NCBI GenBank assembly: GCA_963795265.1
Contig: CAWCHF010000014.1
Location: 77,461 to 141,460 of the forward strand
Origin: an uncultured Actinomycetota bacterium
GTDB taxonomy: Bacteria > Actinomycetota > Actinomycetes > Streptosporangiales > Streptosporangiaceae
Length of the DNA: 64,000 nt
Reading direction: 5' to 3'
In this document: positions 3,937 through 27,028 of the stretch, piece by piece
Position numbering within the stretch: position 1 is the stretch's first letter
Layout: each line of letters starts with the position of its first letter
Made by a program: the position numbers and the translations under genes
Notes under the pieces: generated by a model
Database searches by the model: none
Seen by the model: the letters and a program-made list of their open reading frames with translations, nothing else
What the model was told of the DNA's origin: nothing

Positions 3937-4001
3937 GTGATCGGCGGCGAACTCAAAAGCCAATGCGTTCTCAGTAGCGTTTTCGCACTTCAGGGCACGC
4001 T
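3937..4001 (+). repeat. recombinase-tail repeat, copy A (partial)
   Basis: Shares ...AAGCCAATGCGTTCTCAGTAGCGTTTTCGCACTT... with copies B and C. Immediately precedes a DUF2637 remnant. Confidence 0.55.
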
Positions 4002-4178
4002 GTGACCGCGCGGGCCGATCGGTGGATTCGGCGGACCACTATCGGCTGCGTCAGCATACTGGCGTTGATCGCCGGGACAGTTTCGTATCTGCATGCACAT
4101 CGGGACCAGGTACAGCCGCCACGAGCGGTGGGGCGGATGGTGAAGCAGTCCGGCGTGGCGGGGGAGATCGGCTCGTGA
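4002..4178 (+). pseudogene. DUF2637-family gene remnant with a ~0.5 kb internal deletion
   Basis: Reads ...RADRWIRRTTIGCVSILALIAGTVSYLHAH then jumps to the C-terminal ...GRMVKQSGVAGEIGS*. Both ends align to the intact copy at 7573..8250. Junction lies at shared ACAT microhomology. Confidence 0.7.
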
Positions 4179-4400
4179 GGCTGGACTGCTGTGCGGTGGG
4201 CTGGCTGGAAGCCCAGACATCGACCCCGGAAAGGCCTGAGGCCCATGATCATTGCAGGCCGTGGACCTCCCTCGGACCGCCTTCCCGACGCGGCAGGCTC
4301 CGTTGGCTGATCCTGGCCGACTCGCCATCCCAGGCTCTCAACCTTGCATGTACTACAGCCTTATTCTAGGTTGAAAGGTAACCTATAACAAGGAGGTGAG

Positions 4401-5686
4401 ATGGCAAAGGTTATCCGTAAGCACTGGATCAGCGAAGCCAGCCCAGGGGTGGCTCGACGCGACCGGCCATCCTGCGACTACGAAGCATACGTCCCTGACC
4501 TCCTCACTGGCCGGAAGCAGAATATTCGAAGGGAGCACGGCAGCTGACATCGCCGATGCAGAGCGCGCTATAGCCGTCTTGGACGCTCAAGCTTCTACAT
4601 TGGTCGATACAGAGGCACTTGCTCGTATCCTGCTTCGCGCAGAAGCTGTCGCTTCCTCGCGCATCGAAGGACTAGAGGTCGGCGCACGTCGTCTGCTCAG
4701 AGCAGAAGCAGCCATTGACATGGGCGAACAGCCAACCGACGTCACCGCTGCCGAAGTCCTGGGGAACATCGAAGCGATGGCATCTGCGGTCCAGCAGATC
4801 GCGCCGGGAGACCCGATCACCGTCAACATACTTCTTGACTTTCACAAGCGGCTCCTCAGCGGTACCAGGCTGGAGACCTACGCGGGTCGTACTTCGGTCT
4901 GAGCAGAACTGGATAGGAGGTAGCAACTACAACCCCTGCTCGGCAACATTCATCCCGCCCCCGCCGGAATGCGTCCCTGACTTGCTCGAGGACCTTTTCA
5001 GCTTCTGCAACGACGACGCGCTGCCTGCCGTTGCGCAGGCGGCAATGGCGCATTCGCAATTCGAGACGATCCATCCCTTCGTTGACGGCAATGGCCGAAC
5101 AGGTCGGGCTCTGATTCACTTGATCCTCCGCCGACGTGGCTTGGCAACCCGCGTGCTGCCACCGGTTTCGCTCGTCCTTGCAACGTGGGCAAAGGACTAT
5201 GTAGATGGGTTGCAGGCAACCAGGTATAGAGGCCCGGCATCGTCGACTGCCGCGCGGAATGGGATTAATCTCTGGGTCGCTAGATTCGCTGCCGCCTGCC
5301 TCCGTGCTGTCGCTGACGCATCCGACTTCGAGAGACGATCACAATTGCTTCAGGAGGAGTGGCGAGAGAAGCTCGGCTCAGTCCGAGCTAACTCGGCTAC
5401 CGATCTGCTCCTGCGCGCCTTGCCTGGAGCGCCGCTCCTCACAGTCAAGTCTGCAACGACGCTCATCGGACGCACGTTCCCGGCCGCCAATGATGCGATT
5501 AAGAGACTTGCAGACGCAGGGATACTGCGTCCAATCAGTTTGGGCACCCGAAACCGAGCCTTCGAAGCTACGGCGGTGATTGAGGCATTCACTGCCCTCG
5601 AACGGCAACTCGCTAGCCCCGAAGGGAATACTCTGAGCAGCGAGCCGTCGCGCCGGGTGCCATACCGACAAGTGTCCGTCAACTAG
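4401..5686 (+). pseudogene. Fic/DOC family protein (AMPylase-type), two frameshifts as sequenced
   Basis: AAGGAGG RBS at 4391 and ATG at 4401. Canonical Fic motif HPFVDGNGRTGRAL. Frame breaks near 4515 and 4887 (LETYAG|VLRSEQNWIGG). About 53-58% GC, lower than the flanks. Confidence 0.8.
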
Positions 5687-6274
5687 CGGCAATGCGTTCA
5701 AGGTCCTCAGCCATGTGGGACGGTGTTGTCGAAGTCTGCCTGGTCCTTGGGGCGTGCGTGCTTGGCCTTGAAGAGCAGGACCAGTTCGGGCGCCAGGTAC
5801 GGGATGCCGCCGGGCGTGTGGTGAATGATCTCGCTATAGGGAAGCCGGATCGTCTCGTCGTGCCGGCAGATCCAGGTCTCGCCGTCATGGGGTTCACGGA
5901 ACACATCGAGCAGGTAGTTGCCGGTGGTCCGGGTCGCGGAGCCAGGTCTGGTGTGTGGCGGCCAGCATGTCCGGTGATGCTTCCTCCCAGATCCGGCCGT
6001 TGCCTACCGCGTCGAAGGCGTATCCCGGAAACCGGTCGCGGATCCGGGGAAAGCACGCCGCGGGGAGCGCGATCTCGATGTCTCCGTGGTGGCGCGTCTG
6101 CGCGCCGCGGAACAGATCCAGAGCCCATCCCGCAGCCACGCACCATGGTGTGGTGATCCCGGCCAGGTGCTGCGCGACCTGGCGCGGGGACCAGCACGAT
6201 GACCACCTTGCATCCAGGGCATCGATCTCAGCGGGTGACAACTCGATGCCACCGCCACGCGGTTGCGCGTCCAC
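5679..6274 (-). pseudogene. nucleotidyltransferase-fold protein (aminoglycoside-2''-adenylyltransferase-like family), frameshifted
   Basis: ORFs 5894..6274 and 5707..5904 join into one protein: ...WCVAAGWALDLFRGAQTRHHGDIEIALP... then ...DVFREPHDGETWICRHDETIRLPY...LLFKAKHARPKDQADF. Break near 5900. Confidence 0.6.
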
Positions 6275-6284
6275 AGGAAGGAAC

Positions 6285-6868
6285 CTACCAGCGAGATTGG
6301 GCCGGCAGCCGTGCCTGACCTGGGCCAGGCCAGTAGGTACTTGCCGGGCGGTGAATGCGCTCGAGTGCTTCGCGGAGGTCGTCGGGTAGCGGGTCGGCGG
6401 CGGTGAAGGCGTGCGGCCCGGCCTGGATCTGAATGGTCCGGTAGCGGCGGGCGGTCTTGACGAACTTGCGGATCGACCAGCCGGTTCGTGCCTCGATCCA
6501 GCGGCTGACCGCCAGGGCGGCGAACACGATGGTCAGGTGCGCTTCGATCGAGTCGCGGGTGCGGTGGTAGATCGGCCGGGCCTGCAGGTCGCTCTTGGCC
6601 ATCCGGAATGACTTCTCGATCCGGAAGAGCTGGTGGTAGGCGCCGATCACGAACTCCGCGGTCACCGGGATGCCGTCCGGGCAGGCCCGCAGGTTGGGGA
6701 CGTAAGCCTTTCAGCCCGGCCAGCGCCCGGCCCCTGGCCGCGAGGTCGCGGTTGCTGGTCCGGTTGCCGCCGGACAGCTTGACGAACCGGTTGCGTTCCA
6801 GGTGCAGCAGCTGCTGATCTCGCGGCGAGCCCGCACCGGCCCGCGCGAGCGCATCCGCACGCGCCACG
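6285..6868 (-). mobile_element. IS1634-family (IS4 superfamily) transposase, C-terminal fragment only, frameshifted
   Basis: ...NRFVKLSGGNRTSNRDLAARGRALAGLKG / YVPNLRACPDGIPVTAEFVIGAYHQLFRIEKSFRMAKSDLQARPIYHRTRDSIEAHLTIVFAALAVSRWIE... The N-terminal two-thirds are absent. Confidence 0.7.
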
Positions 6869-7500
6869 TCTACGCCCTGGCTGGCCAGGTTGTCTGCGAC
6901 GCCTGCGACCGGAAGATGCAGGCCAGCCGAGCAAACGGATACGTCTACTGCCGCTGCCGGTTCGCCGCCCAGTAGGCGATCGTCAACAGGATCAGCCATC
7001 CCCGCGACATCCTCATTCGCGAGGCCGAGCTGGTGCCCGCACTCGACGAATGGCTGGCCAGCCAGTTCGAGCCGGACCGCGTCGAGGCCACCATCGATGT
7101 CCTGACCTTGGCGCAGGAAGACCCTGGCGCCAAGCGGCAGACCATCCTCCAGGCCAGGCAGATCATCTGCGACTGCGAGGCGAAGACGGCGCGCTACCAG
7201 GCCGCGATCGACGCCGGCGCGGACATCCAGGAGATCAGCCGGTGGATAAACGCCACCAAGGCCGAGCGCCTGGCCGCCGAGGCAATGCCGCATTACCAGT
7301 GACTGCCCGAGCCGGATGACCCGCGACGAGATCACGACCCTCGTTCACCGGACCGCCAGCTTCACCGCAAGCGCTAAGGGACGCCGACATGGCGGACAAG
7401 GCAGCCCTCTATAAGGGACTGAACCTGCGGCTGACCTACGAGCACGTGACTGGGGTCATCCGGGCAGAAGCGCAGCTAGGCGAGGGCCCGTTTTGAATAA
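6845..7500 (+). pseudogene. large serine recombinase, C-terminal half only (zinc-ribbon and coiled-coil), in-frame stop plus frameshifts
   Basis: ...HVYALAGQVVCDACDRKMQASRANGYVYCRCRFAAQ*AIVNRISHPRDILIREAELVPALDEWLASQF... with TAG at 6973-6975. Tail ...DKAALYKGLNLRLTYEH... lies in other frames. N-terminal catalytic domain replaced by the IS fragment. Confidence 0.7.
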
Positions 7501-7501
7501 A

Positions 7502-7572
7502 GTGCGTGTCCGGGGGGAGCGCGCCAATAGCCAATGCATGATGACGGGTGAGTTCGCACTTGGGGGCGCGCG
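7502..7572 (+). repeat. recombinase-tail repeat, copy B (reference copy, terminal codons of the recombinase pseudogene)
   Basis: GTGCGTGTCCGGGGGGAGCGCGCCAATAGCCAATGCATGATGACGGGTGAGTTCGCACTTGGGGGCGCGCG. Translates VRVRGERANSQCMMTGEFALGGAR*. Confidence 0.65.
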
Positions 7573-8250
7573 ATGACCGGTCGGGCGGATCGGTGGATCC
7601 GGCGCACGACCATCGGGTGCGTGGGGATGCTCGCGCTGATCGCCGGGACCGTCTCCTACTTGCACATGCACCTGCTGGTGGAGCTGCACGGCCAGCCCGG
7701 CTGGGTTGCGGCGCTGACGCCGCTGTCCGTGGACGGGATGATCGTGGCCGCGTCGACGACCCTGCTCGCCGACTCGCGTGTCGGCGGGCGGGGTGGGTTC
7801 TTGCCGTGGACACTGCTTGTGGCGGGCAGCGCCGCGAGCCTGGCCGCGAACGTGGCGGTCGCCGAGCCCACGGCAACTGGACGGGTGATCGCCGCCTGGC
7901 CGTCGTACGCGTTGATCGCCGCATATGAGCTCCTTATGCGCCAGGTCCGCAAGGCGTCGGAGAACGCTGTGGCCGGGCAGCGGTCAAGGAGGTCACTTGG
8001 CGCGGTGACTGCCAGTGGCGGCAAGCCGGGTTCTGCAAGCCGGGCCGCGGCACCCGAACGCAGGGCATCGGGGCGGGACTTGCGGCTGGAAGCGTGGCAG
8101 TGGGCTCAGGACAACCGGGCTGCCGATGGCTCGCTTCCCTCGGGTCGGGACATCGGGACCAGATACGGCCGCCACGAACGGTGGGGGCGGATGGTCAAGC
8201 GCTCGGGCCTGGTCGGCGATCTAAGCGAGATCAGCTCGACACGTAGCTAG
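7573..8250 (+). CDS. DUF2637-family membrane protein (intact copy)
   Basis: 225-aa ORF. TM segments IGCVGMLALIAGTVSYLHMH, VAALTPLSVDGMIVAAS and LLVAGSAASLAANVAV. C-terminal HTH-like ...LPSGRDIGTRYGRHERWGRMVKRSG. Confidence 0.75.
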   Translation: MTGRADRWIRRTTIGCVGMLALIAGTVSYLHMHLLVELHGQPGWVAALTPLSVDGMIVAASTTLLADSRVGGRGGFLPWTLLVAGSAASLAANVAVAEPTATGRVIAAWPSYALIAAYELLMRQVRKASENAVAGQRSRRSLGAVTASGGKPGSASRAAAPERRASGRDLRLEAWQWAQDNRAADGSLPSGRDIGTRYGRHERWGRMVKRSGLVGDLSEISSTRS

Positions 8251-8301
8251 CTAGCAGGCGATATTCCTAGGTTGGGCATTACATCGCGATATGAAAGTTT
8301 C

Positions 8302-9190
8302 ATGGCTGCAGACCAGAGCACACCGGTGACTGAGCCTGTATCTGCCGATGGCGGACCAACCGAGACGATCTCTCAGTTCGTTGCGCGCGTTCTAGATCAG
8401 TTGTCGTTGAGCGCATGGCTACCGGCCGCGGCACTGCTGCTACTGCTGGACTTCATCGTGCAGCTAGGCGTTGCGTTGGATGCCAAGGGGGAAGGGCCCG
8501 GCCTGGGTAATTGGCGATGCTCTGACCCGGATGAGCGCGATTGGCATAGGCGGCGCCGTGCTGCTGGTGATCGCAGTAGTGGTCGTCACGATCTTGACGC
8601 AAGCTTTTTCTTTCGAAGCGATCAGAGGTTGGAGGGCTACTGGGGCACGACGGATGCTGTGGAGTCGATCGCGCGGTGGCGAGCAAGTCGACATCGCGGT
8701 CACAAGGGCAAGCTTGACCGTCGTCGGCGGAAGCTGACCGAGGATGCGTGGGCAGTTGCGAAGGCGAAGATCATCGAGATGGAGGATGGCCGTCGGCAGA
8801 ATGGACTGCGGCCTGATCTGACTCCCATCATGATCGGTCGTCTGGAAGCTCGGGTGTTGAAGACGTTTCCGGTCGGTCGGTTGACGCCGAAGCAGCTGGA
8901 GCGCGTTCGTCGATACGATTGGGCAGCGCCAAGCGCCGAGCTCAGGCTTGCTGCGGCGAAGGGTGAAAGTCGGCAAGCAAATGAACGATTTCCCCAGGCC
9001 CGAGCGCACTCTTCCGACGAGGCTAAGGCAACATCCTGCGCGCACATGAGGATCAGATCGAGCACTGAGGCGGTTCGAGCGTTTCATCCAGGATGTCTTC
9101 GATGAAACTGGCCGCGGTGACTTCAGAAGGATCACGGACGAGCAACGGAATACCGCCTTGAGCGTGTACTGTTCTCTATTGTCTTCTTAG
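8302..9190 (+). pseudogene. hypothetical 2-TM membrane protein with charged coiled-coil-like C-terminal part, several frame breaks as sequenced
   Basis: ATG at 8302. TM1 LSAWLPAAALLLLLDFIVQLGVAL. TM2 (AIGIGGAVLLVIAVVVVTILTQAF) is readable only in the +1 frame (ORF 8471..8737), then returns at ...EAIRG|LEGYWG. Tail frames change again after about 8965. About 60-65% GC. Confidence 0.5.
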
Positions 9191-9774
9191 TCGCCGTTGA
9201 GCGGAATAGTAGGGAATTGCTAGGTTCACACCTCAGCAGCTGGCCCTATGCAACTGGCAGTGCCACCGCGGCCAACGGTGGAATTTGGATCATGCACCGC
9301 GCAGCTCTCGCCACGGCGCGAGCATATCGGTGAGCTACTGGTCGCAATCGCGCGGAGAACATACACCTTGACCATTGGCCAGTCTGGATGCCGCGGACAT
9401 GGATCAGGTTCCGGAGCAGGCGGAGCCTCGACCTCGTAGGGGCAGCGAGGCTTGCCGCAGCGCCAAATCACATCCCGGCGCTCGGGAGTCGGCACCCGCC
9501 TGTCATTCACGTGCTTAGCGTGTGCCCCTCGGCTACGAATGTCGACAGCGCCCGGCGGTTCTTCCGCGTATCGAAATCTCCCAGGCAGTGACGTGGCTGA
9601 GCAAGAGGGCGGGTGGCAGAGCGGCGTGGTACTGCCGGGGTGCCCATCAGGCACGACCGACGCGGGAACGAGCACAGGCGACACACTCCCAGATGGCCGC
9701 AGTGACAGCGTGCGGACTCGCACGGCAACCAGACCGGGCGTAATAGCGGAGCCCAATCGCAGTAAATTGATGCC

Positions 9775-10408
9775 GTGCGCATCCTTGGGCCATCCAGCCG
9801 AGACGAGCTCATACTCGCTTGGCTTTACAGCGAGTGGCCCCGGACCGACTCTTTGAGGCCGCTAGTCGATCATCCCGATCTCTCTGACGCTGTGCAGAAC
9901 ACCGCTAGGGTCCAGATGCTGTTTAGCATCAGGGCAAACATTATCCAGGAGCTTCCCCACGGGATGCGGCCAAGACTTGGTCGATATCGAAGACGCTGAC
10001 ATAGCTAGCCTCTACATCCTTCCTTGCCGCGAGTGGTATCTCGACTCCGGTCGCACCTTCCGCCTCGCTGACGTGCCCGCGAACCTGGCTCCCGGTCGCC
10101 ACCCTGTCGGTCACCTCGCCAAAGTCGACGCCATCGCTCCATCGCTCGCCGACTATGAGGCCGCTACAACACGTGAAGTGCTCATCCTGAACGCCGCGGA
10201 GCAAACTGGACCGTACACGATCATCGAGGGCACTCACCGCGCTACTGCGCTTTATCGCAACCAACTCGGTAAGCCCAACATGCCCTGGAGGGCCATATTG
10301 GTTGCCGACCCACTCATTAAGCAATCTCCCTGGCACATCGAATCGCTCCGGGCGGGGATCACTCTCAACCTGTGCGCTTGGGAGGCCGAGCTAGGACAAC
10401 TGCGGTAA
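9775..10408 (+). pseudogene. hypothetical protein with ParB/Srx-fold, DGQHR-like motif (IIEGTHRATALY), one frameshift near 9975
   Basis: ORFs 9775..9999 and 9977..10408 join at ...ELPHGMRPR|LVDIEDADIASLY (one extra G). Motif GPYTIIEGTHRATAL resembles the ParB N-domain / DndB DGQHR box. Confidence 0.5.
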
Positions 10409-10439
10409 CGAGTACGGGCGCGACGCAGACCCTCCCTTC

Positions 10440-11239
10440 TCAGTGCCAGCGCGATCGGATGTACTGCCTGAGTTGGTTAAGCTGCGCTGGGGTCAGCGGC
10501 GCGCAGTTCACTTTCAGATCGCCGCGTTGGTTTGGGTGCGGTAGCTGCAGCACCATGCGGTCCGCGCCCTCGAGGCTCAGCGGGCCCGTCATCGGCACCC
10601 CGGCGGGAATCCGAAAGGTGTCGCGGAAGGCCGTCCGGGCATGGGCACCGAACAGCACGATCACCGGCGCTAGGGCAACACGGACGACTGGGCGGAGCCA
10701 GGTCGCAACGCACTGGTCGAGCGCCTCCGCCACTCCGAGCTCCCCGAGCTGACTTGCAGTGGACGACTTCGGTGAGAACAAAGTGTCGGCCCGGTTCGGC
10801 GGGACGCTCGAGTAGTTCAGCTGCCCGGGCTCGGGTCCTAGACCAGAAAACTGTTGAAGTGGCTCGATGCCTTGGCGGCGTGGTGGCCAGTAGGGGCCGC
10901 AACCGCTGATCGACCCAAGGAACCGTCCGCCGATCGAAGCGTCCGTCGAAGAAGTCAATCCGCTGTCCCCCATCCCAGGATGCCGTCGGATAAGCCTCCC
11001 GCGCGGTCGATAGACGGATTGCTGCTGACGAACAGAATCGGCGCGCGAGAAATGTGTCCGCTCCACGGTTCAGGAACGTGGAACTCGTCAGGCCCAGCCG
11101 CGTCCTGAGACCTCACGATGGCCGAGCATGAAAGATGTTCGCCCGCCAGGCAACGCTCGGCTGTTGGGCATCGGGTAATCCGGACGAGAAGCGAATTAGG
11201 GGCCGATGTCAGGTCAAGGTCATAGGAGAGATCCTCCAC
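10440..11239 (-). pseudogene. uracil-DNA glycosylase superfamily (UDG-like) protein, at least 2 frameshifts
   Basis: The N-terminal part has PEPWSGHISRAPILFVSSNPS (ORF 10955..11239). The middle has FVLTEVVHCKS (frame of ORF 10477..10902). The C-terminal part ...VIVLFGAHARTAF...LQLPHPNQRG lies in ORF 10440..11066. Confidence 0.6.
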
Positions 11240-11317
11240 GACCAGACGACCGGGCGCAGGTTACGTGACGCCCTTAGAGCATCCTGTCTTCGCCGCATGC
11301 GAATAGACGGCCGCACG

Positions 11318-11408
11318 ATGATCTTCGATGGGGCCTCGGCGGTAAGGGGGGAGCGCACCCATAAGCCAATGCGTACTGACCGGTGAGTTCGCGCTCGGCG
11401 GTGCGCGC
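11318..11408 (+). repeat. recombinase-tail repeat, copy C
   Basis: ATGATCTTCGATGGGGCC...GGGGAGCGCACCCATAAGCCAATGCGTACTGACCGGTGAGTTCGCGCTCGGCGGTGCGCGC aligns to copies B and D. No recombinase body upstream. Confidence 0.65.
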
Positions 11409-12092
11409 TTGACCGGGCGGACCGATGGGTGGATTCGGTGGACAACGATCGGGTGCGTCGGCTTCCTGGCGCTGATCGCCGGCACCGCGTAGTATCTGCA
11501 TATGCACCTGCTGGTTGAGCTGCACGGGCAGCCGGGCTGGCTAGCGGCGCTGACGCCACTATCAGTAGACGGGATGATCGTGGCAGCGTCGACGACGCTG
11601 TCGGCCGACTCGCGTAGCGGCGGCCGAACCGGGTTCCTGCCCTGGGCGTTGCTTGTGGCGGGCAGCGCGTCAAGCCTGGCGGCAAACGTTGCGGTTAGCG
11701 GAGCCGACGGTCACTGGCCGCATCATCGCGGCCTGGCCGTCGTTTTCGCTGATCGCCGCATTCGAGTTGCTGATGCGCCAGGTCAGGCGCGCTGCTGCGA
11801 CACCTTCGCCCACAAAGTCATCGCGGCGGCCCGTCCAGGTTCTGGGCGCGGTCCCGGTCGCCGGCAGCGGACCTGCCAGAACAGGCTGTCCTGTCGCGAG
11901 GTACTACCACGCCTCGGCGCGGGACGTCCGGGACAAAATGCCCGGCTGGAGGCGTGGCTGTGGGCTCGGGACAACCGGGCAGAGGACGGCGCGCTTCCCT
12001 CAGGCCGGGAAATCGGCACCAGGCATGGTCGCCACGAGCGGTGGGGACGGATGGTCAAGCAATCCGGGCTGGCCCGCGAGATTGGTGCGTAG
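11409..12092 (+). pseudogene. DUF2637-family gene, degraded copy (TTG start, in-frame TAG at 11490-11492, two frameshifts)
   Basis: Collinear with 7573..8250: ...WIRWTTIGCVGFLALIAGTA*YLHMHLLVELHGQPGW... The frame leaves near 11700 (correct frame is in ORF 11653..12138) and returns near 11940. Confidence 0.75.
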
Positions 12093-12163
12093 GGTCGGCA
12101 GGACTGACCCGCGCGGTTGTGGGATGCTGCCGGGATGATCGTGCGGTGGTTGCTGGTGTGCGC

Positions 12164-12801
12164 ATGAGCTCGGACGTGCCTGTCCGGGTGATGCGCGGGG
12201 ACCTGCCCGGTGACCTTGCCGATGCCTTTGCGCGCTCAAGTCGAATCGCCTGGGACATCGAGACCACGGGCTTGGACTGGCGGCAGGAAAGGATCGGGAC
12301 TTGCCAGCTGTTCTCGGAGACCGTGGGCGTGGCCGTGATCGGTATCGGCCAGGACAGGCCCGCTCGGCCTGGCGGCCCTCCTTGAGGACAGCTCAGTTGA
12401 AAAGGTCTTTCATCACGCGCCATTCGATTTGCGTTTCATGGCTAGCGCCTGGCGAGTGTCACCCACCGCCATTCGGTGCACGAAGGTCTGCTTCCAAGAT
12501 CCTTAATCCGGAGGCGCCGAATGAGCACCGACAGCCTCCAACGTCTTGTCGGCAGGTCTCTTGAGGTCAAGTTCCCCAAAGGCGCAGTTCGCGTGAGCGA
12601 TTGGTCGGCGGCAGACCTGACTGATGAGCAGATCCGCTATGCGGCGAACGATGTCGTGCACCTCCCGCGCTCTCCTTGACGTCATGGAGCAGGCACTCCT
12701 GGCGAGCGGTCGCGAAGACCTGTATGCCGCCTGCTGCGCGTTTCCTTCCAGCAAGGGTGACACTTGAGCTGGGTGGCTACCCCGACGTGTTCTCCTACTG
12801 A
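12164..12801 (+). pseudogene. RNase D-like 3'-5' exonuclease (DnaQ/DEDD fold), multiple frameshifts
   Basis: IAWDIETTGLDW (ExoI), KVFHHAPFDLRF (ExoII) and SDWSAADLTDEQIRYAANDVVHL (ExoIII) are read across ORFs 11954..12385, 12301..12564 and 12476..12679. Tail ...ELGGYPDVFSY* ends at 12801. Confidence 0.65.
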
Positions 12802-18389: not shown

Positions 18390-18521
18390 CGGCGCGCGTT
18401 ACCAGGGCAGGTGCTGTGTCAGGGCCCAGCTCCACAGTGGGAGGGATGTCGTTACTCGCGACTCGCAGGGCGACCTTCCTGTCTGCGGGCAACTCCCTGC
18501 CGCAGACCAAATGGCGCTGGT

Positions 18522-19350
18522 TCATGCTGCAAATCGAGATGGCCGCCGACCGGACCGCGTGGCCCAGCGCCGAATGGCGGCACCGCTCCGAGTGCGGCCG
18601 GAGACGCGCTCGAGACGGCCCATCATGTAGCGATCCCAGCGATCACCGCCGGAATCCGAGAATCGGGCAATACAGAAGAACTGGGTCGGGGCCTGTCCGC
18701 CTGAGTCTCTGGGTTTCAGCGTCAGGTCGCAAGTCTCACCTGCGCTGAGCATTGCGACTGGCTTCCCGCTGTCGGCGAAGATGCCGCGTGTGACCTTGTC
18801 CTCGATCCTCACTGCGACCGCGTATATGTGCTGTGAGCTGCCGTTGAAAACCCGAGCATTCTCGAGCCGGTCACCGAGAAGAGTCACCCGCACGCTCATC
18901 GCCTGTGCATGCCGCCCGGCTGGCTCCAGCAGGCCCATCATGTACCGATGCCAGCGGTATCCGTTTGAGTCCGAGAACTGCGCTACGCAGACGTAGGATC
19001 TCGGCTCTGGCGAACTAGGGTCCTGGCGCTTCAGCCTGAACTCACGTGTCTCGCCGGCATGCATCAGGTCGACGAGCCGTCCGCTGTCGGCGAAGACAAC
19101 GCCCGTGACCTTGTCCTGAATGACCACATTGATCATGTAGATGTTCTCGGAACTGCCATTCAGCACGCTGGGCGGCCTCGATCTGGTCACCAGCCAGAGC
19201 CACGCTGACGTTCTTGGCCTGCATCCGGCGGCGGTCATCGTCGGCCAAGCGGCCGCGCTCGACCTGGCGCCGCATCGTGAGGGCGGTAAATCCGAGAGCG
19301 CCGACGGTCCCCACTGCGCCGACCCAGGTCGCAAGATCACCGATTTCCAT
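18522..19350 (-). pseudogene. N-terminally anchored membrane protein carrying two tandem ~95-aa repeats of an uncharacterised domain, one frameshift near 19160
   Basis: MEIGDLATWVGAVGTVGALGFTALTM (TM segment, ORF 19042..19350). Repeat 1 is NVSVALAGDQIEAAQRVLNGSSENIYMINVVIQDKVTGVVFADSG...FSDSNGYRWHRYMMGLLE. Repeat 2 is SVRVTLLGDRLENARVFNGSSQHIYAVAVRIEDKVTRGIFADSG...FSDSGGDRWDRYMMGRLE. Confidence 0.55.
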
Positions 19351-19496
19351 CTAACGTACATTCCCCCGGCCGCGCAGGGCTGCCGCCGTCTTCGAGCACG
19401 CTGTATATCCCAGACTCAAGTCAAGGAGGAGACGCAATTACGACGCGCGCAAGAAACTGCCGGTTGACCCGGCATCTCCGGGCGGGCTGTCTCTTG

Positions 19497-19572
19497 ATGA
19501 TCTTCGACGGGGCTCCAGCCGCCAGGGAGGAGCGCGCCAATAGGCCAATGCACGCTGACGGTGAGTTCTCGC
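19497..19572 (+). repeat. recombinase-tail repeat, copy D (abuts the jetD 3' end)
   Basis: ATGATCTTCGACGGGGCTCCAGCCGCCAGGGAGGAGCGCGCCAATAGGCCAATGCACGCTGACGGTGAGTTCTCGCTC. Translates ...MIFDGAPAAREERANRPMHADGEFSL. Confidence 0.65.
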
Positions 19573-19607
19573 TCAGAAATGCACGGTGCCGGGCCAGCAG
19601 CGAACGC

Positions 19608-20766
19608 TCAGGGCTGCGAGAGTTGGTCGGCAAGTCGCCTGGCTGCCCAGTTCCAGTCGATGCGCTCCTGCTCGAGCCGGACGCGTTCCCCGAGGCGGTC
19701 AGTAACCAGGTCTTGGTAGAGCGCCTGTTCCTCCGCGGTGAGCCAGTCCAGCCGGGAGATGGCGGGCGAAGCTTCGCCGACCCATCGGTCACGATGCGCT
19801 AGCAGCGTCTCCCGGTCCATGAGCAGCGACCGGGTGCTGGGTAGCCAGGCGCGCAGCTGATTCAGGATCGCGAAGCCATGGGTGTCGAGATCACCCCAGT
19901 AGATGACGTCCGCGTCGGCCAGCCAGGGCAGGGCACCGACGCGATCAACTTCAAAGCCCTTGCCCCAGAACGCGACCCCGTCGCGCGGGACCGGAGCGCT
20001 GAGGAACGTGATCTCGTTCTCGATGACCAGTGCTCGCTTCGCCTTGACAGGCAGCGCGGCCAGCTCGGCCACCCTGACCGTGAGATCGGACAGCCCTGAG
20101 GCAATCCCCAGCGAGGGATCGGGCCGGATCCGCAGCGTGTCGGGCTTGGTGCGCAAACCCAGTGCGGTGAGAAAGCCGGATGCGGTCGAGGAAACGCCGA
20201 GCAATTGGGCCAGTACCTGGCGGTGGCGCTCCACGAACTTCGTGTCAACTCCTGGGGCGGTGATCTCCCGCAGGTAGTGTCCGGAGCCTCGTGCGGCGAT
20301 CAGCCAGTCATAAGCGGACAAGAGGGCTGGCCACGATGCGCTGACCTCGAGCGCCCGCAGGGGATTTGCCGTAACCCACGCCGCGACGGCTGGCTCGGCG
20401 GCGACGGTGGATAGCACGGCACGGTAGGCCTTGACGTCCTCGGCGACCCCAATCAGCGCGATCGCCTGCTCGTATGACTCGATAACCGCGCGGCTCGGCA
20501 GCTCGTTACGGCCGATCAGCCGACCGCCGACTGGCGAGTAGCGGAGCGTGTACCGGAGCATTTTCGCGGCTGCCGGCCTCGAGTGCCGCGACCCACACGC
20601 GGACCGCCTCGATATCATCACCAATCCTGCCAGGTCGCGGCCCGCGCAGCGGCATGTTTATGACCGGGAACGGCGACGCCGTGGCCAGCGCGGTCAGGAT
20701 CGAGCCGTCATCCCAGCGTCTGCGCACCCGGGCGCGGATGTCCGAAGCCGTTGTCCAGGCGGTCAT
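19608..20766 (-). CDS. jetD: Wadjet JetD (DUF3322 plus Toprim-like DUF2220), single frameshift near 20570 as sequenced
   Basis: ORF 20506..20766 (N-terminal ...RRRWDDGSIL...VRVWVAALEAGS) joins ORF 19608..20624 (...KMLRYTLRYSPVGGRLIGRNELP...). Toprim-type motifs VIENEITFL and IYWGDLDTHGFAIL. 4-nt overlap with jetC. Confidence 0.85.
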
Positions 20767-23700
20767 GCGAGGTGACCAGCCTGATGTTCGCGAAACTCCT
20801 CGATCGTCAGAGTCTGCAGCCGTGAGTAGTTCCCGGCGGGATTGTCGACGAACCCGATGGCGCGGACATACGGCTCAATCACGTGCACCTTCTGAAGCGG
20901 AGTGACGATCAGCAACTGCAAGCCCAGCCGCGCGAACAAGTCGAGCGCGTAGCGGGTCGACACGTCCGAGCCGCGGCCGAATGCTTCATCGATCACGGCG
21001 AAACGGAAGTCACGAGATTTCTCGACCCCCCATTCGAGCCCGAACTGATACGCCAGCGAGGCAGCAAGGATCGTGTAAGCCAGCTTCTCCTTCTGCCCGC
21101 CCGACTTGCCATCGGAGTCGCGGTAGTGCTCCCACTCCTCGTCGGTGTCGCGATCACGCTCGGACGCCGAGAAGGTGAACCAGTAGCGGACATCGGTGAC
21201 CCGCCGGGTCCAGGCACGGTCCGCGTCGGCGTGGCCCTCGCGTGCACGGAAGCGCTCGATGATCCGCTGCACGTCCAGGAACCGTTGCTCGGAATAGTGA
21301 TCATCATCCATCGACAGGGTGTCGTCGGTTGCAGCCCGCAGCTCGCTGCGGAAGTCCTGGACCTCGGTGTTCACCGTGCGCTCGGTGACAAGCAGGATGT
21401 ACCGGCCCGGGCTGTAGTCGATCGCGCCCAGCGCCTCGTTGATGCGATCCACCCTGGCATGGATCTCCTCGGCCTGGCGGCGCAGCCAGTTGTTGAACTG
21501 CGCGAGCTCACGGATGGTATTCGTGTTCAGCTGCCGCTTGAACTCGCTCTCGAAGCGCGGCAGGTCGTCGGTTGCCACCCGGTCGTGAAACGCCAGGAAC
21601 TCGCCGCGGGCCTCGACGCTCGCGTCCATCTCGGTTGTCGCCTCGGGCCAGCGGCGGCGTACCTCGCTCATGGCCTGAATCATTCGCTGGGCGTAGCCGA
21701 CAAGCTCGCGGCCGACTCGGTCTATTGCAGACTGCAGCCCGGCCGTCAGCGACTCGCCGGCGGCCGCGCAGGCTTCGGGGGACCGGGGCATGCTCTCGCC
21801 GAGCCGCTCGGTGAGCTGGTCAAAGGAAAGGCGGGCGGCGGTCAGGCGTGATGCCTCGACGGTGGCCAGAAAGCGCTGTTCCGCCGTCCGGGCCTCGGTC
21901 GCCCGCCTCAGGAGCTCCTCCTGGACGCGAACGTCACCGCTCAGCTTCTGAAAGACGGTCTGGGACTCAGCAGCGGACGCCTTGTTCTCCTCGAGTTGGC
22001 GCTCGACCTCCGCCAGCGCAGAAGATCCCGAGACGAGTCGCTGACGTTCCTCTTCCGCGGTGGCAGCCCTGCTGTCCGCCTCGACCCAGTCGACCTCGCT
22101 CCACGAACGGAAGGTCGCAAGGCCGTCCAGCGCGGAGCGCCGGCCGGTCAGGTCATCGCGGTTACCGCGGAGCCGGGCGTACTGCGCTTCTGCCTCCAGG
22201 AGCTGCTCCTGCAGCCCCGTCATATAGTCCGTCAGCGCGGCAATCTTGCGCTCGTTCATCCAGCCAAGTACCCACGAGCGCGGATCGTCGACGCGGGACC
22301 GATCGTCTTTCTCATGGCGGTCGCCTGAGCGCATCTGTCCTTCGCGGGTAACAGCCCGGTGCTCATCACGGAACTGCTCGATCGTGTTAACGCAGACAAA
22401 GTCGGCCCGGCGGATCAGCTCGTCACGCAGGTAATCCCGGAACGGGCCCCCTGCGATCTCGATTGTGTCCGCGAGCAGCAAGACTCCGCTGCCGGTTCGT
22501 GCCTGCAGCGGCACCCGACGGGCCGACACCCGCTCGTACACGAGCCTGCTGCCCGCGGTCTGGCCGCCGCTGCGCTGGTAGGTGAGCCGGTGCTCGTTCA
22601 CCCAGCGCGAGACGCGGTCGTAATGGTACTGAGGGACGAGCAGCGACAGCGCAAAGCTGCGCAGTACCCGCTCAGCCGCGCCTCGCCAGATCGCGAACTG
22701 CTCCGCAACGTCGAGCAGCTCGCCGGCAAACGGCAGCTCGCTTTCGTCGATGCCCTCATCGAGGCAGAGCATGGCGCGAATCTCAAGCTGCGCAGGGGGC
22801 AGGTTGTTCTTCCGGCTCGCCAGGCTCATCAGCTCCGCGCGGGCTTCCTCGCCGGCTTTCCGCAGTTCCTGCCGCGATGCGATCACGACCTCGAGTTCTT
22901 CCTCGACCGTCAGGAACTCGGTCTCCAGCTGCATGCGCGCGGCCGTCACGGTGCCGTCCAGCGCCGCGAATGCCGTCGAGTCGGTGACATCGGGCAGCTG
23001 AGCGGTCTGGGTGAGCGAGTCGAGATCCTGGCGCCGCTGGCGCCGCTCGGCCGCCAGCGTGCGCGCGACTCTGATCTGGACCTCGAGCTGGCTGAGCCGA
23101 TCACCTCCGGCCGCGGCGCGCTCGATAATCAGCGATTCGCGCTCGCGGACTAGTGCGGCGCAGATCTCCTGGGCTGCCGCCGCTGCCTTGGCCTGGCGCT
23201 CGCGCATGATCTTGTGCTCGGCAATTTCCTCTGTCAGCAGGCGCGCTCGCAGCTCGGCGATGAACAGGCGCACTGCGTCACGCTGCTGCTCCAACTCATC
23301 GCGCCGTCCCAGTGCTTCGTCGTAGTGCTTGCTGCTGACAACCAGAGGCTGGAGTGCTTCGAGCTGCTCGCGGGCGCGTTTGACGGCGTCGTGGGCCTTG
23401 GTGAGGTCCTCGAAGTGGGCAACGATGTCGCGCACCTTGTCCGCGGCGTCGGCTGGCTCCAGCATGTGGCTGCGGACAAACTCGTTGAGGTTGCCGACCG
23501 ATTTCATCGAAACGGTCTGGTGGAACAGTTCCATCGCCTGCTCGGATTTGATCCCGAGCAGGCGCCGGGCCCGGCGTGCGTAATCGGGGAACACGGTGTG
23601 GATCTCAGCTCCGCCTGCTCGGAGCCGCCGGCGCAGGTCCGTCAGGTCCGAGCCGAAGTCGGTGAAGTCCGTCTCGATCGACAACTGCTTCTGCGATGTC

Positions 23701-24164
23701 ACAAAGAACCGATCCGGCTGGCCGGCCCGGTCTTTCTGATGGAATACCTGAGCCAGCGTGATCGACTCATCGAAGCCGTCATTGGCGAAGACGCCGAGGA
23801 TGACCGAGTAGTGGCGCTGATCGCGAAGTCCGACCGGTCGGGACGTGCCGGTAGCCTCGACCCGCTCCGACTTGTAGTGACCCTCCACGTAGGACCGCAG
23901 GGTGCGCTCCCTCGTGTCCGCGCCCGCCGCCTTGTTATAGGCGATCCGGTGAGCCGGCAGGAGCAGCGTGCTGAGGGCATCGACCAGCGTCGACTTACCG
24001 CTGCCGATGTCGCCTGTAAGCAGTGCAGTTGCACCGCCCGCGGACAGCCGCCATACCCGCTTGTCGAAGGTCCCCCAGTTGAAGACCTCGAGTCGCTGCA
24101 GGCGATAGCCGGCCCGGCGACCTCCGGCGCCCAGCTCGATCGTGGAGAAAAGGCCATCACTCAA
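20763..24164 (-). CDS. jetC: Wadjet JetC, SMC-like ATPase
   Basis: Intact 1133-aa ORF. Walker A LTGDIGSGKSTLVDAL, long coiled-coil middle, Walker B FRFAVIDEAFGRGS. Overlaps jetB by 8 nt and jetD by 4 nt. Confidence 0.9.
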   Translation of the reverse strand: MSDGLFSTIELGAGGRRAGYRLQRLEVFNWGTFDKRVWRLSAGGATALLTGDIGSGKSTLVDALSTLLLPAHRIAYNKAAGADTRERTLRSYVEGHYKSERVEATGTSRPVGLRDQRHYSVILGVFANDGFDESITLAQVFHQKDRAGQPDRFFVTSQKQLSIETDFTDFGSDLTDLRRRLRAGGAEIHTVFPDYARRARRLLGIKSEQAMELFHQTVSMKSVGNLNEFVRSHMLEPADAADKVRDIVAHFEDLTKAHDAVKRAREQLEALQPLVVSSKHYDEALGRRDELEQQRDAVRLFIAELRARLLTEEIAEHKIMRERQAKAAAAAQEICAALVRERESLIIERAAAGGDRLSQLEVQIRVARTLAAERRQRRQDLDSLTQTAQLPDVTDSTAFAALDGTVTAARMQLETEFLTVEEELEVVIASRQELRKAGEEARAELMSLASRKNNLPPAQLEIRAMLCLDEGIDESELPFAGELLDVAEQFAIWRGAAERVLRSFALSLLVPQYHYDRVSRWVNEHRLTYQRSGGQTAGSRLVYERVSARRVPLQARTGSGVLLLADTIEIAGGPFRDYLRDELIRRADFVCVNTIEQFRDEHRAVTREGQMRSGDRHEKDDRSRVDDPRSWVLGWMNERKIAALTDYMTGLQEQLLEAEAQYARLRGNRDDLTGRRSALDGLATFRSWSEVDWVEADSRAATAEEERQRLVSGSSALAEVERQLEENKASAAESQTVFQKLSGDVRVQEELLRRATEARTAEQRFLATVEASRLTAARLSFDQLTERLGESMPRSPEACAAAGESLTAGLQSAIDRVGRELVGYAQRMIQAMSEVRRRWPEATTEMDASVEARGEFLAFHDRVATDDLPRFESEFKRQLNTNTIRELAQFNNWLRRQAEEIHARVDRINEALGAIDYSPGRYILLVTERTVNTEVQDFRSELRAATDDTLSMDDDHYSEQRFLDVQRIIERFRAREGHADADRAWTRRVTDVRYWFTFSASERDRDTDEEWEHYRDSDGKSGGQKEKLAYTILAASLAYQFGLEWGVEKSRDFRFAVIDEAFGRGSDVSTRYALDLFARLGLQLLIVTPLQKVHVIEPYVRAIGFVDNPAGNYSRLQTLTIEEFREHQAGHLA

Positions 24165-24753
24165 CGGGTGCCGCCTTGCCTGACACCGTCGAGGCGTATT
24201 CGGCGAGCTTTCCGGCGAAGTCCGACAGTGTTTGCGCGTCCACGTAAGCCTTGAGGATCCGGCGCACCTCCCACTGGTCGGACCGCCCGCGCAGCTGGCG
24301 CAGGAATCCCAAGTCGGCCGCCCGACGGATGGTGGTGTCGGCCTGATCGACCACCCGCGCCTCGTTGGTCGATTCCGTGAAGAATAGTCTCAGCATCTCA
24401 ACGATCTGATCGCGGCTCAGCACAAGCTTGCCCTCGGCGCCAGCTGTCTCGAACTCGACAAGCCGTTTGCGGAGAAGGACCAGGAGCAGGCTCAGGTTGT
24501 AGCCGAGGGTGCGGCGGTTTACAAGCCGAGGCAGCGGTTCCTCGCCGTCGGCTTCCGGCCGAGTCTGCAGATAGGCATAACCTTCGGTGTCGTGGATGAC
24601 CACGTCGACGCCGATCGCAGCAAAGTGATCACGGATCGGCGGCGCACTGCGGTCCAGGGTGGTCCATGTCGTATCGTCCTGCTCCCGGTAGACGACACCC
24701 CGCATCAGCTGGATGATCGCGGAGGCTGTGGCGTGTTCTTCGGCGGACCTCAC
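24157..24753 (-). CDS. jetB: Wadjet JetB (DUF4194, MksE-like)
   Basis: 198-aa ORF positioned between jetA and jetC with overlapping stop/start codons. Sequence IIQLMRGVVYREQDDTTW...LLLVLLRKRLVEFE... is typical of JetB. Confidence 0.8.
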   Translation of the reverse strand: MRSAEEHATASAIIQLMRGVVYREQDDTTWTTLDRSAPPIRDHFAAIGVDVVIHDTEGYAYLQTRPEADGEEPLPRLVNRRTLGYNLSLLLVLLRKRLVEFETAGAEGKLVLSRDQIVEMLRLFFTESTNEARVVDQADTTIRRAADLGFLRQLRGRSDQWEVRRILKAYVDAQTLSDFAGKLAEYASTVSGKAAPVE

Positions 24754-26177
24754 TTTCGGGTCACCGTTACCTTCGGCAGCCGTGCTCGACGGGTGCCATG
24801 ATCAGCGACGTAGTCGATGCACGTCTCATCGTGTTCGTCCACCGAGACCTCGAGATCCTCCTCAGCCAGCGCAAGGTAGCCGACAATCTCAGCGGCGCCT
24901 TGCTCGACTGGATAGGCAGCAACGACGTCGCTCAGCAACGCCGAGCCGCGCTCTGGCACTGCGGAGCGGATGTTGGCGGCAAGCCGTGCCTGGTTCACGA
25001 AGGTCTGCTCGAACAAGGCGCTCACATCCGCCTCTGTCTCGGTGGTCGGGTCCAGCAAGCTCTCGACCCGCGCGCTGGGGCGGGGGTCATACAGCGGCCG
25101 TTCGAACGGCAGGGCGATGGTGACTCCCGGCTCGTAAACTTCAAGCCCGATGGCAGGCGGAGTGTCCCGGCAGGAGAGCGCCTTGGCCTCGATCAAACGG
25201 ACGAGATCGAGGACGCGGCGATTCTCCAGCCACACCTGATCATCCAGGAAGCGGCGCAGCTGCTCTGAGATCTGACGGACGGTTCGCTGGGTACGCTCGG
25301 CGGCCTCGGACCAGTCGTGATGCACTGTGCGCAGTCGCCGGTCCGTTTCAACCTGTTCCAGCGCCTGAAGCCGGGCCAGCATGTGCGCTAGCTCGTCCTG
25401 CCTCGTCTCGGACAACAGAAAGTCATAAAACGCCCGAAAGCTTTGGCCTTGGTCAGAGCTGTCTATGTCGGCGCGGCTGTTGACAAGCTCGGCGAGCAGA
25501 TCGCCTTTGCGGCCCGCCCAGGACGCGATACGCTCGCGTATCGCGCGATCGAGACTGCGGAAGTTCTCCTCCACCTCGCGGAAATCCGACAGCAGTTCGC
25601 GGGCCGTAGACGCGAACTGCTGATAGCGGTCACGCAGCGCGGTGTCGCTGAGAACGGTTAGCTGGCCGGCCTCGACCGCAGCTATCTCCTGATTGACTTC
25701 GTCCCTGCGGCGCTGCAGTTCAGCCAGGCGGAGCTCCGGGTCGGTCTCGGTACCGTGCACGATCTGGCGCAATAGCTCAACTACCGTGTGCAGCCGCGAC
25801 TCCGTGCCGACGAATGGGCGGACGCCCAGCCCAATGACCCAGCCGTAGGCTTTCTCGAAGGCCGGAGTCGCGTCGTAATGTACCTCGTCTGACCCGAGCG
25901 GGTAGAAGCGGCGTAGCCAGCCTGCATCCGGGTGGGCCCAGTCCTCCAGATAGTCGATGGCCGACTTCGGATACCGCGCAGCGCTCGGGTCAGCCGCGTT
26001 AAGCGCATAGAGCTCGTCGTCCAGCGCCACGGCCAGAGCCGAAATGGATGTAGCACCGTGGTTACTTTCGACAAAGTAGCGGCCGAGGAAGGCCAGGATG
26101 AGCGGCGCGTTGGCGGCGCGGAGCAGCCGCCAGGCCGGATGGCGGTCGCGGAGCCGCTCGACATCACTATGGTCCAT
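24750..26177 (-). CDS. jetA: Wadjet JetA (DUF3375, MksB/kleisin-like)
   Basis: ORF 24750..26363. Likely start is ATG 26177 (MDHSDVERLRDRHPAWRLLRAANAPLILAFLGRYF...). ATGA overlap with jetB. Confidence 0.8.
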   Translation of the reverse strand: MDHSDVERLRDRHPAWRLLRAANAPLILAFLGRYFVESNHGATSISALAVALDDELYALNAADPSAARYPKSAIDYLEDWAHPDAGWLRRFYPLGSDEVHYDATPAFEKAYGWVIGLGVRPFVGTESRLHTVVELLRQIVHGTETDPELRLAELQRRRDEVNQEIAAVEAGQLTVLSDTALRDRYQQFASTARELLSDFREVEENFRSLDRAIRERIASWAGRKGDLLAELVNSRADIDSSDQGQSFRAFYDFLLSETRQDELAHMLARLQALEQVETDRRLRTVHHDWSEAAERTQRTVRQISEQLRRFLDDQVWLENRRVLDLVRLIEAKALSCRDTPPAIGLEVYEPGVTIALPFERPLYDPRPSARVESLLDPTTETEADVSALFEQTFVNQARLAANIRSAVPERGSALLSDVVAAYPVEQGAAEIVGYLALAEEDLEVSVDEHDETCIDYVADHGTRRARLPKVTVTRK

Positions 26178-26316
26178 GGGCCCTCCATGCTCAGCTGTGC
26201 TCAGCCTAAGGAGCAGCACCGACAGTGCGGGTCGATACGACGTGGGCCGTGCACCGTCACCGATGAGAGGCGGACCGCACACGCGATACCGAGATGAGTT
26301 CCGCGCGACAGAGGGT

Positions 26317-26388
26317 GGCTGACCTCCTTGACGCAGCCCGGCGCAGGTCGCGGAGCGAGTCAATAGGCCGATATGTGATGGCGGCGGG
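26317..26388 (+). repeat. recombinase-tail repeat, copy E (most diverged), upstream of jetA
   Basis: GGCTGACCTCCTTGACG...GGAGCGAGTCAATAGGCCGATATGTGATGGCGGCGGG aligns to copy D, with about 17/20 identities over GGAGCG.G.CAATAGGCC. Confidence 0.45.
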
Positions 26389-27002: not shown

Positions 27003-27028
27003 GGGAGAAGACTACGGCAGCGATTGGA

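Follow-up and report, generated by a model that had tools for sequence, protein, structure and literature searches.

What process places the same short sequence, always in one orientation, in front of one unrelated set of genes after another? This question is raised by a stretch of 64,000 nucleotides (hereafter the window) from an uncultured member of the Streptosporangiaceae (Actinomycetota; assembly GCA_963795265.1, contig CAWCHF010000014.1, positions 77,461–141,460), in which an island at 3.9–26.4 kb combines direct repeats, genes of the DUF2637 family, the decayed remains of a gene for a large serine recombinase (LSR), and cargo largely of the defense type. A preliminary description counted five repeats (A–E), took them for orphaned recombinase 3′ ends and proposed either serial accretion or cassette exchange. 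Our analysis indicated that the island is probably a tandem array, now decayed, of small elements that normally integrate at the 3′ end of the tRNA-Leu(GAG) gene. The feature is real and largely explained: the process itself, tandem accretion, is known, and the elements form an undescribed family that uses an LSR, is specific for tRNA-Leu and carries defense cargo.

The repeat core, GTGTCCGAGGGGGGA, was identical over its 15 nt to the reverse complement of the tRNA-Leu(GAG) 3′ end (acceptor and T-stem end). On the plus strand the tRNA of the window reads TGGTGTCCGAGGGGGGACTTGAACC, and the leaders of the repeats start with GTGTCCGAGGGGGGAGCGCACCC. Retention of the core differed among the copies: in B, 13 of the 15 bases identical to the tRNA remain (GTGTCCGGGGGGA at 7506–7518), C and D have the G-run and the adjoining arm, and A has the arm only. 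Relatives have the full 15 nt, and in more distant ones the identity with the tRNA is lengthened to GTGTCCGAGGGGGGACTCGAACC. This correspondence supports the earlier proposal of accretion at a target that is regenerated as at tRNA genes.

A scan of one genome per species revealed 77 loci with the same architecture, all in Streptosporangiales and including Streptosporangiaceae metagenome-assembled genomes, Nocardiopsis, Actinomadura, Nonomuraea and Spirillospora (loci are cited below by L numbers). The flanks of tRNA-Leu(GAG) are parted by DUF2637 arrays in L005, L007, L010, L015, L069, L075 and L092. The left flank of the tRNA in the window (39562–42328) is homologous to DNA that ends exactly at a leader and DUF2637 gene in L007, L010, L075 and L078b, an arrangement that corresponds to the predicted attL configuration; the tRNA together with its right flank (42314–48312) is homologous to DNA following the arrays in L005, L069 and L015, whose tRNA side would be the attR side. 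An independent metagenome scan for LSR tails beside tRNA-Leu gave two informative contigs. One, L088, contains a full-length LSR, 66% identical to that of L013, running into tRNA-Leu. The other, L092 (reverse strand), is a two-unit array with an LSR only in the tRNA-proximal unit: unit 1 consists of a leader, a DUF2637 fragment and cargo with a tyrosine-integrase fragment, and unit 2 of a leader, DUF2637, an extracytoplasmic function (ECF) sigma gene with a neighboring open reading frame (ORF) taken for its anti-sigma partner, and the LSR, followed by tRNA-Leu and an M20-peptidase flank as in the window. L005 is a three-unit array that ends in an LSR tail and then the tRNA. The layout of the family at tRNA-Leu(GAG) is accordingly host flank, core, leader with DUF2637, cargo, LSR, core and tRNA. 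The junctions of host flank with putative attL and of LSR, putative attR and tRNA in these relatives, and a near relative that differs at copy D, are further evidence for accretion.

Many of the related loci contain two to four DUF2637 copies or remnants on a single strand, each followed by different cargo. Much of this cargo is of the defense type (McrBC, Mrr, GIY-YIG, ScoMcrA-type HNH, SLFN/AlbA, AAA_13 and OLD-TOPRIM ATPase), and it varies between units and between genomes. In Nocardiopsis L034 (10067–19512), the unit beside tRNA-Leu begins with DUF2637 and ends with a tyrosine integrase; the integrase module of the family appears to be exchangeable, and arrays can apparently mix both types. 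In L078 a unit also lies to the left of the host flank. The host flank of the window at 39.5–42.3 kb was itself considered as an inserted unit and rejected, as its left edge has no core-like sequence, and short tRNA-Leu-like matches near 37.0 kb lie inside the P-type ATPase gene and were attributed to chance. Separately, L006 contains a T-loop-side tRNA fragment, ACTTGAACCCC, just upstream of its second-junction core (~16150–16200), perhaps left over from a former attR within the array.

Reading frames of the LSR genes distinguished two types of junction. In about 14 loci the gene directly upstream of DUF2637, in the same orientation, encodes an LSR. Where one unit meets the next, its frame crosses the core and continues for about 22 codons to a terminus of the form ...RVRGGSAPISQCVLTGEF..GAR and stop; in L003a, L008 and copy B of the window, the TGA and the first codon of DUF2637 overlap (GTGA or ATGA). 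The frame of the pseudogene in unit 1 likewise traverses the core of copy B and the leader after it, with the overlap (ATGA) at 7573. Beside the tRNA the frame ends in ...VRVRGGT and stop (in L088, ...AEAQLGECPFWDKVRVRGGT and stop, the frame entering the tRNA). The presence of two different frame ends indicates that the C-terminus of the LSR depends on the DNA to the right of the core. Apart from these, the LSR and DUF2637 of L013 (8270–10747) form a single ORF of 825 codons owing to a 2-nt difference in the leader, which may be a fusion or an assembly artefact.

These configurations suggest the following mechanism. In the circular form of an element, attP would have the 3′ end of the LSR gene on one side and the DUF2637 gene on the other. 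Recombination with the tRNA would occur inside the common core and linearize the element, placing DUF2637 at its start and the LSR at its end, while the tRNA was rebuilt. Further elements would integrate beside the resident one and the arrays would grow, with older units losing their integrase and retaining their junctions. Each repeat in the window would then comprise the right end of one unit, the core or its G-run, and the arm and DUF2637 leader that open the next unit. Unit 1, from A to B, would consist of a DUF2637 remnant, Fic, a nucleotidyltransferase, an insertion sequence (IS) fragment and the LSR pseudogene; units 2 and 3 would have DUF2637 at the start and a class-2 arm (25–30 nt) with the G-run, and no LSR, at the end. 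We infer that LSRs would have catalyzed the integration events, and likewise the order of insertion and the route that took this array to a place 16 kb away from the tRNA. The units without an integrase may have arisen by decay, or may be movable by the LSR of another unit.

Significance of the repeats was estimated with a profile built from 15 copies of other genomes only, with which the window was then searched (nhmmer). The search returned copy A with E = 7e-8 (3947–3999, model positions 14–66 only), copy B with 1.6e-14 (7511–7571), copy C with 3e-18 (11345–11404) and copy D with 1.5e-8 (19522–19573). Together with a repeat search and a five-way alignment, these values support copies A–D, all on one strand. 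The fifth proposed copy, E (26345–26388), reached only E = 3, and its ungapped identity with D, 19 of 31, is below the best matches expected by chance, usually 20–21 in 200 simulated windows. It lies in the 344-nt spacer from the probable JetA start (ATG at 26178) to the MarR stop. Of the five copies claimed, four are thus upheld. Their extents also differ from those first reported: copies A, B and C are homologous across the whole DUF2637 gene, over about 700 nt at 73–82% identity, and copy D to about 19595.

Homology between the copies begins abruptly at −60 to −67 nt from the DUF2637 start, independent of the DNA upstream. Copies C and D have an additional 25–30 nt in common to the left, from 11317 and 19496; this class-2 arm recurs at four junctions, C and D of the window and L082a and L082b of a second genome, and a class-3 right arm is common to L003b and L005b. 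The repeat is an attachment-site junction, composed of the core, a conserved arm of about 50 nt and the start of the DUF2637 gene. The idea that all copies are orphaned recombinase 3′ ends is not supported, because the parts in common (core, element-side arm and DUF2637 leader) are for the most part situated downstream of the point where conservation of the LSR ends; moreover, blastn and tblastn detected no LSR remnants upstream of A, C, D or E. A leader profile found 28 copies in 1.5 Mb of related loci, 27 of them directly before a DUF2637 gene on the same strand, the exception being copy D of the window; in L075, the coding match to DUF2637 after the leader starts only at about residue 31. 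The roughly 35 nt from the arm to the start codon are conserved and have no evident att role. Codon periodicity in the leader alignment gave no clear signal, and an Rfam scan of the window returned two tRNAs only, the repeats matching no RNA family. A second leader variant occurs in the 70 nt before DUF2637 in L010, L012, L014, L021, L025 and L028 (GGGGGGAyTCGyCrGCTACGTACATGG...); it shows apparent compensating changes flanking the palindrome TACGTA, which might form an RNA hairpin or be an inverted repeat to which a protein binds.

The DUF2637 genes following copies A, B and C had been described as internally deleted, intact and broken, respectively, and Pfam and tblastn gave the same result. 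The remnant in unit 1 matches residues 1–33 at 85% identity (tblastn), and its segment 4097–4165 matches 8150–8219 in the repeat search. The intact gene of unit 2 scored 62.3 bits against Pfam PF10935, for which the cut-off is 22.8, and a fragment of the copy-C gene (ORF 11502–12092) scored 28.9 bits (1.2e-6). An AlphaFold model of the unit 2 protein has four membrane helices, followed by a linker and a small C-terminal domain of three helices, at moderate confidence (mean predicted local distance difference test score 66). Homologues numbered 2490, and many at 70–79% identity were in soil metagenome contigs. Among viral contigs only three distant matches were found, suggesting that the family is not typical of phages. 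An exact look-up of the window's DUF2637 protein returned no record, and the literature on DUF2637 gave unrelated mentions, none about these elements.

The only recombinase found in the units of the window is the LSR pseudogene beside copy B; none was found in units 2–4. The location of copy B in the 3′ end of a decayed LSR was confirmed by tblastn, which aligned 6799–7469 with residues 318–540 of the intact L013 LSR at 54–62% identity, and by a weak Pfam zinc-ribbon match (Zn_ribbon_recom, 0.002). The DNA of the pseudogene is 88–97% identical to L003 1–780. It lacks the N-terminal resolvase catalytic domain and the recombinase domain; the intact homologues in L013 and L064 have Resolvase, Recombinase and zinc-ribbon domains (Pfam). 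Within the IS fragment that has taken the place of the gene's N-terminal half, 6348–6795 is 80–86% identical to copies in L013 and L028.

Comparison with near relatives revealed one polymorphism at a junction, exactly after copy D. L082 is 91–95% identical to 15050–19561 of the window, save for an IS insertion at 18807, and its positions 9184–9936 are 95.5% identical to 18807–19561. Past the D junction, L082 continues with an intact DUF2637 gene, restriction-type cargo, a further junction and another DUF2637 gene, without Wadjet there, which indicates that Wadjet replaced, or was inserted over, the start of the fourth unit. In the window, copy D is followed by about three DUF2637 codons and then a break, and the JetD stop lies 12 nt beyond. 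L001 is 96.6% identical over 3–18296 and collinear, with the same A–C structure. Between the window and L001 (7975–8010), seven differences fall within 7512–7543, which covers the core and arm of copy B, and none in the next 356 nt; the surrounding sequence is about 98% identical. Four of the six substitutions at 7512–7543 make copy B of the window more like copy D. This cluster suggests a short, recent exchange tract, perhaps from conversion or recombination. The view that the repeats bound units with unrelated cargo is supported; the count of four cassettes was generous, since homology with L082 begins inside the third interval, at 15050, and not at a repeat.

Several observations weigh against an array of tRNA-targeting elements. 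The tRNA-Leu(GAG) site of the window is intact and unoccupied, 16 kb from the array, with genes for a hydrolase, a polysaccharide deacetylase, a small multidrug resistance (SMR) transporter and a P-type ATPase in between; the array abuts the regenerated target in L005, L088 and L092 and does not in the window, where no tRNA fragment was found at either array end. An empty site between the short-chain dehydrogenase/reductase (SDR) and MarR genes was not found via MarR homologues, L083 and L084 sharing just 1.5 kb. At the left end, copy A has GTGATCGGCGG in place of a recognizable tRNA-derived core, and the DNA upstream of it (3800–3946) showed no significant similarity to the LSR tail or the host flank (local alignment against shuffles, z < 0.6). 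At the other end, copy E may be a degenerate arm and is indistinguishable from chance; because it is not significant, the right end of the array is undefined. Junctions C and D retain only the G-run of the core, with the class-2 arm replacing the LSR tail, and the uniform class-2 and class-3 edges are unexpected from random deletion of LSR genes. Dyad symmetry at the junctions and at attB was at best 10–16 of 24, equal to the random range of 10–16. The start of the L082 homology inside the third interval implies that exchange is not confined to the repeats. To our knowledge, recombination of attP with attL or attR is not expected of serine integrases, so that repeated insertion calls for an explanation.

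The location of the array can be accommodated if it was built at tRNA-Leu and then moved as a composite, either by excision at its outermost sites and re-integration at a pseudo-site between SDR and MarR or by chromosomal rearrangement; use of a second target is another possibility. Such a move, which would refine the explanation by accretion at the tRNA, is consistent with the empty canonical site, with the array lying 16 kb off in the same orientation relative to the tRNA, and with the core-like but mismatched stretch of copy A, as the arm of a pseudo-site would have; the unit to the left of the host flank in L078 fits as well, and composite elements that move as a unit are documented (PMC5704250). 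It is nevertheless opposed by the lack of a recognizable right-end junction (a unit's right arm followed by foreign DNA), by the failure to find an empty target, and by the fact that the sole LSR in the array is a pseudogene, and we regard it as possible but doubtful. Far less probable is the view that no site-specific recombination took place in the window, the repeat being the promoter or 5′ leader of paralogous DUF2637 genes and the island having grown by duplication, homologous recombination of DUF2637 copies with one another and the usual turnover of defense islands. The constant position of the repeat before DUF2637, the conservation of about 35 nt between arm and start codon, identity among copies sufficient for homologous exchange (73–82% over about 700 nt) and the absence of a tRNA at the array all agree with it, but it would make a coincidence of the 15-nt identity with tRNA-Leu and of the whole series of attL, attR and empty sites, and it leaves aside the tie between the LSR frame and the core and the sharp upstream edges that coincide with the core.

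Those sharp edges, located at the G-run, also favor a platform for cassettes, in which the units without an integrase are non-autonomous and are excised or inserted at the core by an LSR from another unit, forming an integron-like array. The class-2 arm at C, D, L082a and L082b, where the DNA further left is unrelated, and the class-3 arm at L003b and L005b point in the same direction, as do the independent assortment of junction halves (the left half of D equals that of L082a, whose right half resembles that of A), the conversion-like tract at B and the absence of LSR remnants upstream of C or D. However, we saw neither circular or excised forms nor one and the same unit at two places, and the only cargo in common is with L082, where homology starts inside a unit. 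Some integrase-less units (L034 and unit 1 of L092) end in a tyrosine integrase or its fragment, which fits the decay of mixed elements, and a published model already accounts for such units (PMC5704250). We consider a cassette platform quite unlikely. In a more specific form, which we also hold to be unlikely, the integrase-less units would be non-autonomous defense cassettes with conserved ends (leader and DUF2637 at the left, an arm of 25–55 nt at the right) that an LSR from another unit still shuffles at the tRNA-derived core, and both the C-terminus of the LSR and its translational coupling to DUF2637 would switch with the state of integration. Accretion of elements at tRNA-Leu(GAG) followed by decay remains the explanation that we prefer.

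Among known systems, phiRv1 of Mycobacterium tuberculosis is an element with an actinobacterial LSR whose target sequence, REP13E12, exists in several copies; this target is a repetitive element and not a tRNA, and we know of no tandem arrays of defense units at it. A closer parallel is the scheme for elements that are integrative and conjugative (ICEs) or integrative and mobilizable (IMEs), in which an element integrates at a gene end, decays to a unit that has lost the integrase but retained the att sites (a cis-mobilizable element, CIME) and is joined by more elements beside it (PMC5704250); the same accretion appears in recent work on phage-ICE tandems (PMC13651849). The earlier remark that no described element with such organization was known is not supported, given this published scheme. 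Like the CIME tandems (ICESt1/ICESt3-related islands and IME-CIME; PMC5704250), the present arrays show site-specific integration with a conserved gene's 3′ end as the target, the target end directly repeated at every junction, loss of the integrase from older units whose junctions persist, addition of new units next to these and cargo specific to each unit. They differ in the recombinase, an LSR here (some relatives have a tyrosine integrase) and a tyrosine integrase in most cases described, in the DUF2637 gene that starts every unit, in the distance of the window's array from the target gene, and in that no transfer or mobilization genes were seen.

Small elements that target tRNA genes are classic in actinomycetes (PMC2440964): pSAM2, SLP1 and pMEA300 likewise have Actinomycetota hosts, integrate at tRNA 3′ ends and are small, but a serine recombinase and defense-dominated cargo set the present elements apart. 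Pfam found no replication or FtsK/TraB-type transfer domains in any ORF at 3.9–26.4 kb, and the island was not assigned to the actinomycete ICEs. In mycobacteriophage BPs and its relatives, whose systems are integration-dependent, the attachment core lies in a coding 3′ end and integration alters the C-terminus of the protein (PMC4557955). A core in a gene 3′ end is found here too, the LSR ending in ...RVRGGT at the tRNA versus about 22 further residues at an attP-like junction; BPs differs in that a tyrosine recombinase serves as integrase and the repressor gene contains the site. Integrons resemble the island in that a recombinase gene is followed by co-oriented units with differing cargo between related recombination sites. 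The units here are, in contrast, multi-gene, on both strands and each with a conserved gene of 680 nt, and the arrays of relatives are anchored at a tRNA; the island contains no tyrosine integrase (Pfam) and no attC-type hairpins above chance, and the likeness is superficial, limited to layout. Our literature search found no description of LSR/DUF2637 elements at tRNA-Leu.

The biological surprise is modest because the island is an instance of a known process. The junction of LSR and DUF2637 and the 3′ end of tRNA-Leu(GAG) nevertheless constitute a candidate att pair for an undescribed actinobacterial LSR family, and such pairs are raw material for genome-engineering tools. In Streptosporangiales, tRNA-Leu(GAG) is a hotspot for stacked small elements bearing defense genes, among them Wadjet, restriction-modification, McrBC, the HipA/HIRAN candidate and OLD-family ATPases, and DUF2637 with its leader offers a simple marker for more units and new defense candidates. 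The cassette platform, if true, would be a serine-recombinase analogue of the integron.

Table 1 Features of the island, its flanks and the tRNA gene in the window
Feature	Position	Strand	Remarks
TetR regulator	2180–2779	−	Left flank; Pfam TetR_N 5e-14
NAD-dependent epimerase/SDR	2935–3732	+	Left flank; Pfam Epimerase 3e-20
Copy A	3947–4001	+	Degenerate junction: element-side arm and leader only
DUF2637 remnant, unit 1	4002–4165	+	Codons 1–33 joined to C-terminal block; internal deletion
Fic/DOC gene, unit 1	4396–5686	+	Two frames: Fic_N 4396–4902 (5.5e-14), Fic 4715–5686 (3.4e-17)
ANT(2′′)-like nucleotidyltransferase fragment, unit 1	5894–6274	−	Pfam Aminoglyc_resit 2e-6
IS (DDE transposase) fragment	6285–6795	−	Replaces N-terminal half of LSR gene; weak Pfam DDE_Tnp_1
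LSR pseudogene	6799–7572	+	Closes unit 1; only zinc ribbon, coiled coil and C-terminal tail left; one stop and frameshifts
Copy B	7506–7572	+	Junction of units 1 and 2; core, arm and leader
Intact DUF2637	7573–8250	+	First gene of unit 2; 225 aa; Pfam 6.7e-17
Cargo ORFs, unit 2	8272–11316		No Pfam, NCBIfam or PADLOC match
Copy C	11317–11408	+	Junction of units 2 and 3, without LSR; class-2 left arm (11317–11345), G-run, arm, leader
Broken DUF2637	11409–12083	+	First gene of unit 3; tblastn, residues 1–217 at 58%
DnaQ/RNase D-like exonuclease, unit 3	11960–12798	+	Frameshifted
HIRAN protein, unit 3	12682–13629	−	PADLOC candidate PDC-M03B
HipA-like kinase, unit 3	13852–14505	−	PADLOC candidate PDC-M03A
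C5 methylase, unit 3	15232–16296	−	Pfam
NaeI, unit 3	16443–17280	−	Two frames
Internally repeated 279-aa protein, unit 3	18522–19361	−	One of the unit 3 ORFs with no family assigned
Copy D	19496–19595	+	Class-2 left arm, G-run, arm, leader, GTG start, ~3 DUF2637 codons, then break
Wadjet operon jetA-B-C-D	19608–26178	−	Likely JetA start ATG at 26178
MarR	26523–27002	−	Right flank; Pfam
Alpha/beta hydrolase	27056–27976	+	Right flank; Pfam
tRNA-Leu(GAG)	42312–42399	−	ARAGORN and Rfam; 3′ end at 42314–42328 (plus strand)

The G+C content is 0.61–0.66 across 4–26 kb and about 0.70 outside. Most of the cargo assignments made earlier were reproduced (Fic, the ANT-like nucleotidyltransferase, the HipA-like/HIRAN pair, C5 methylase with NaeI, and JetABCD), as were the flanking TetR/SDR and MarR/hydrolase genes (Pfam); the labels ParB-like, UDG-like and PD-(D/E)XK found no match in Pfam, NCBIfam or PADLOC. 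The HipA-like kinase and the HIRAN protein matched PDC-M03, a candidate defense system that is uncharacterized, at 2e-69 and 2e-48 (PADLOC). The Wadjet operon has its four genes in order, with DUF3375 (6e-139), DUF4194 (2e-40), SbcC_Walker_B/AAA_29 and JetD_C (4e-54), DUF3322 being split: JetD occupies two frames on the minus strand (19608–20624 and 20506–20766) that match DUF3322 positions 2–62 and 62–189, which places a frameshift near 20506–20624. NaeI is split alike in the window, L001 and L082. The JetD and NaeI splits may be real decay or long-read homopolymer errors; the contig names suggest a long-read metagenome assembly, and some frameshifts may be assembly errors. Such errors cannot account for the internal deletion in the copy-A DUF2637 gene or for the missing N-terminal half of the LSR.

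Two further observations concern the 279-aa protein and the right flank. The gene for the 279-aa protein has a 69-nt internal direct repeat (18608–18676 and 18923–18991), and its homologue in L082 is interrupted by an IS with a Mu-like transposase, an AAA-ATPase and DUF6431 (L082 5862–9184, corresponding to 18807–18810 of the window). The MarR and hydrolase genes form a 1.5-kb block (26498–27997) that is 84–90% identical to L083 7024–8504 and L084 6993–8496; homology with these two loci ends at 26498–26507, and the DNA beside the block differs on both sides in L083 and L084, with helicase and SNF2-type genes adjoining it in L084.

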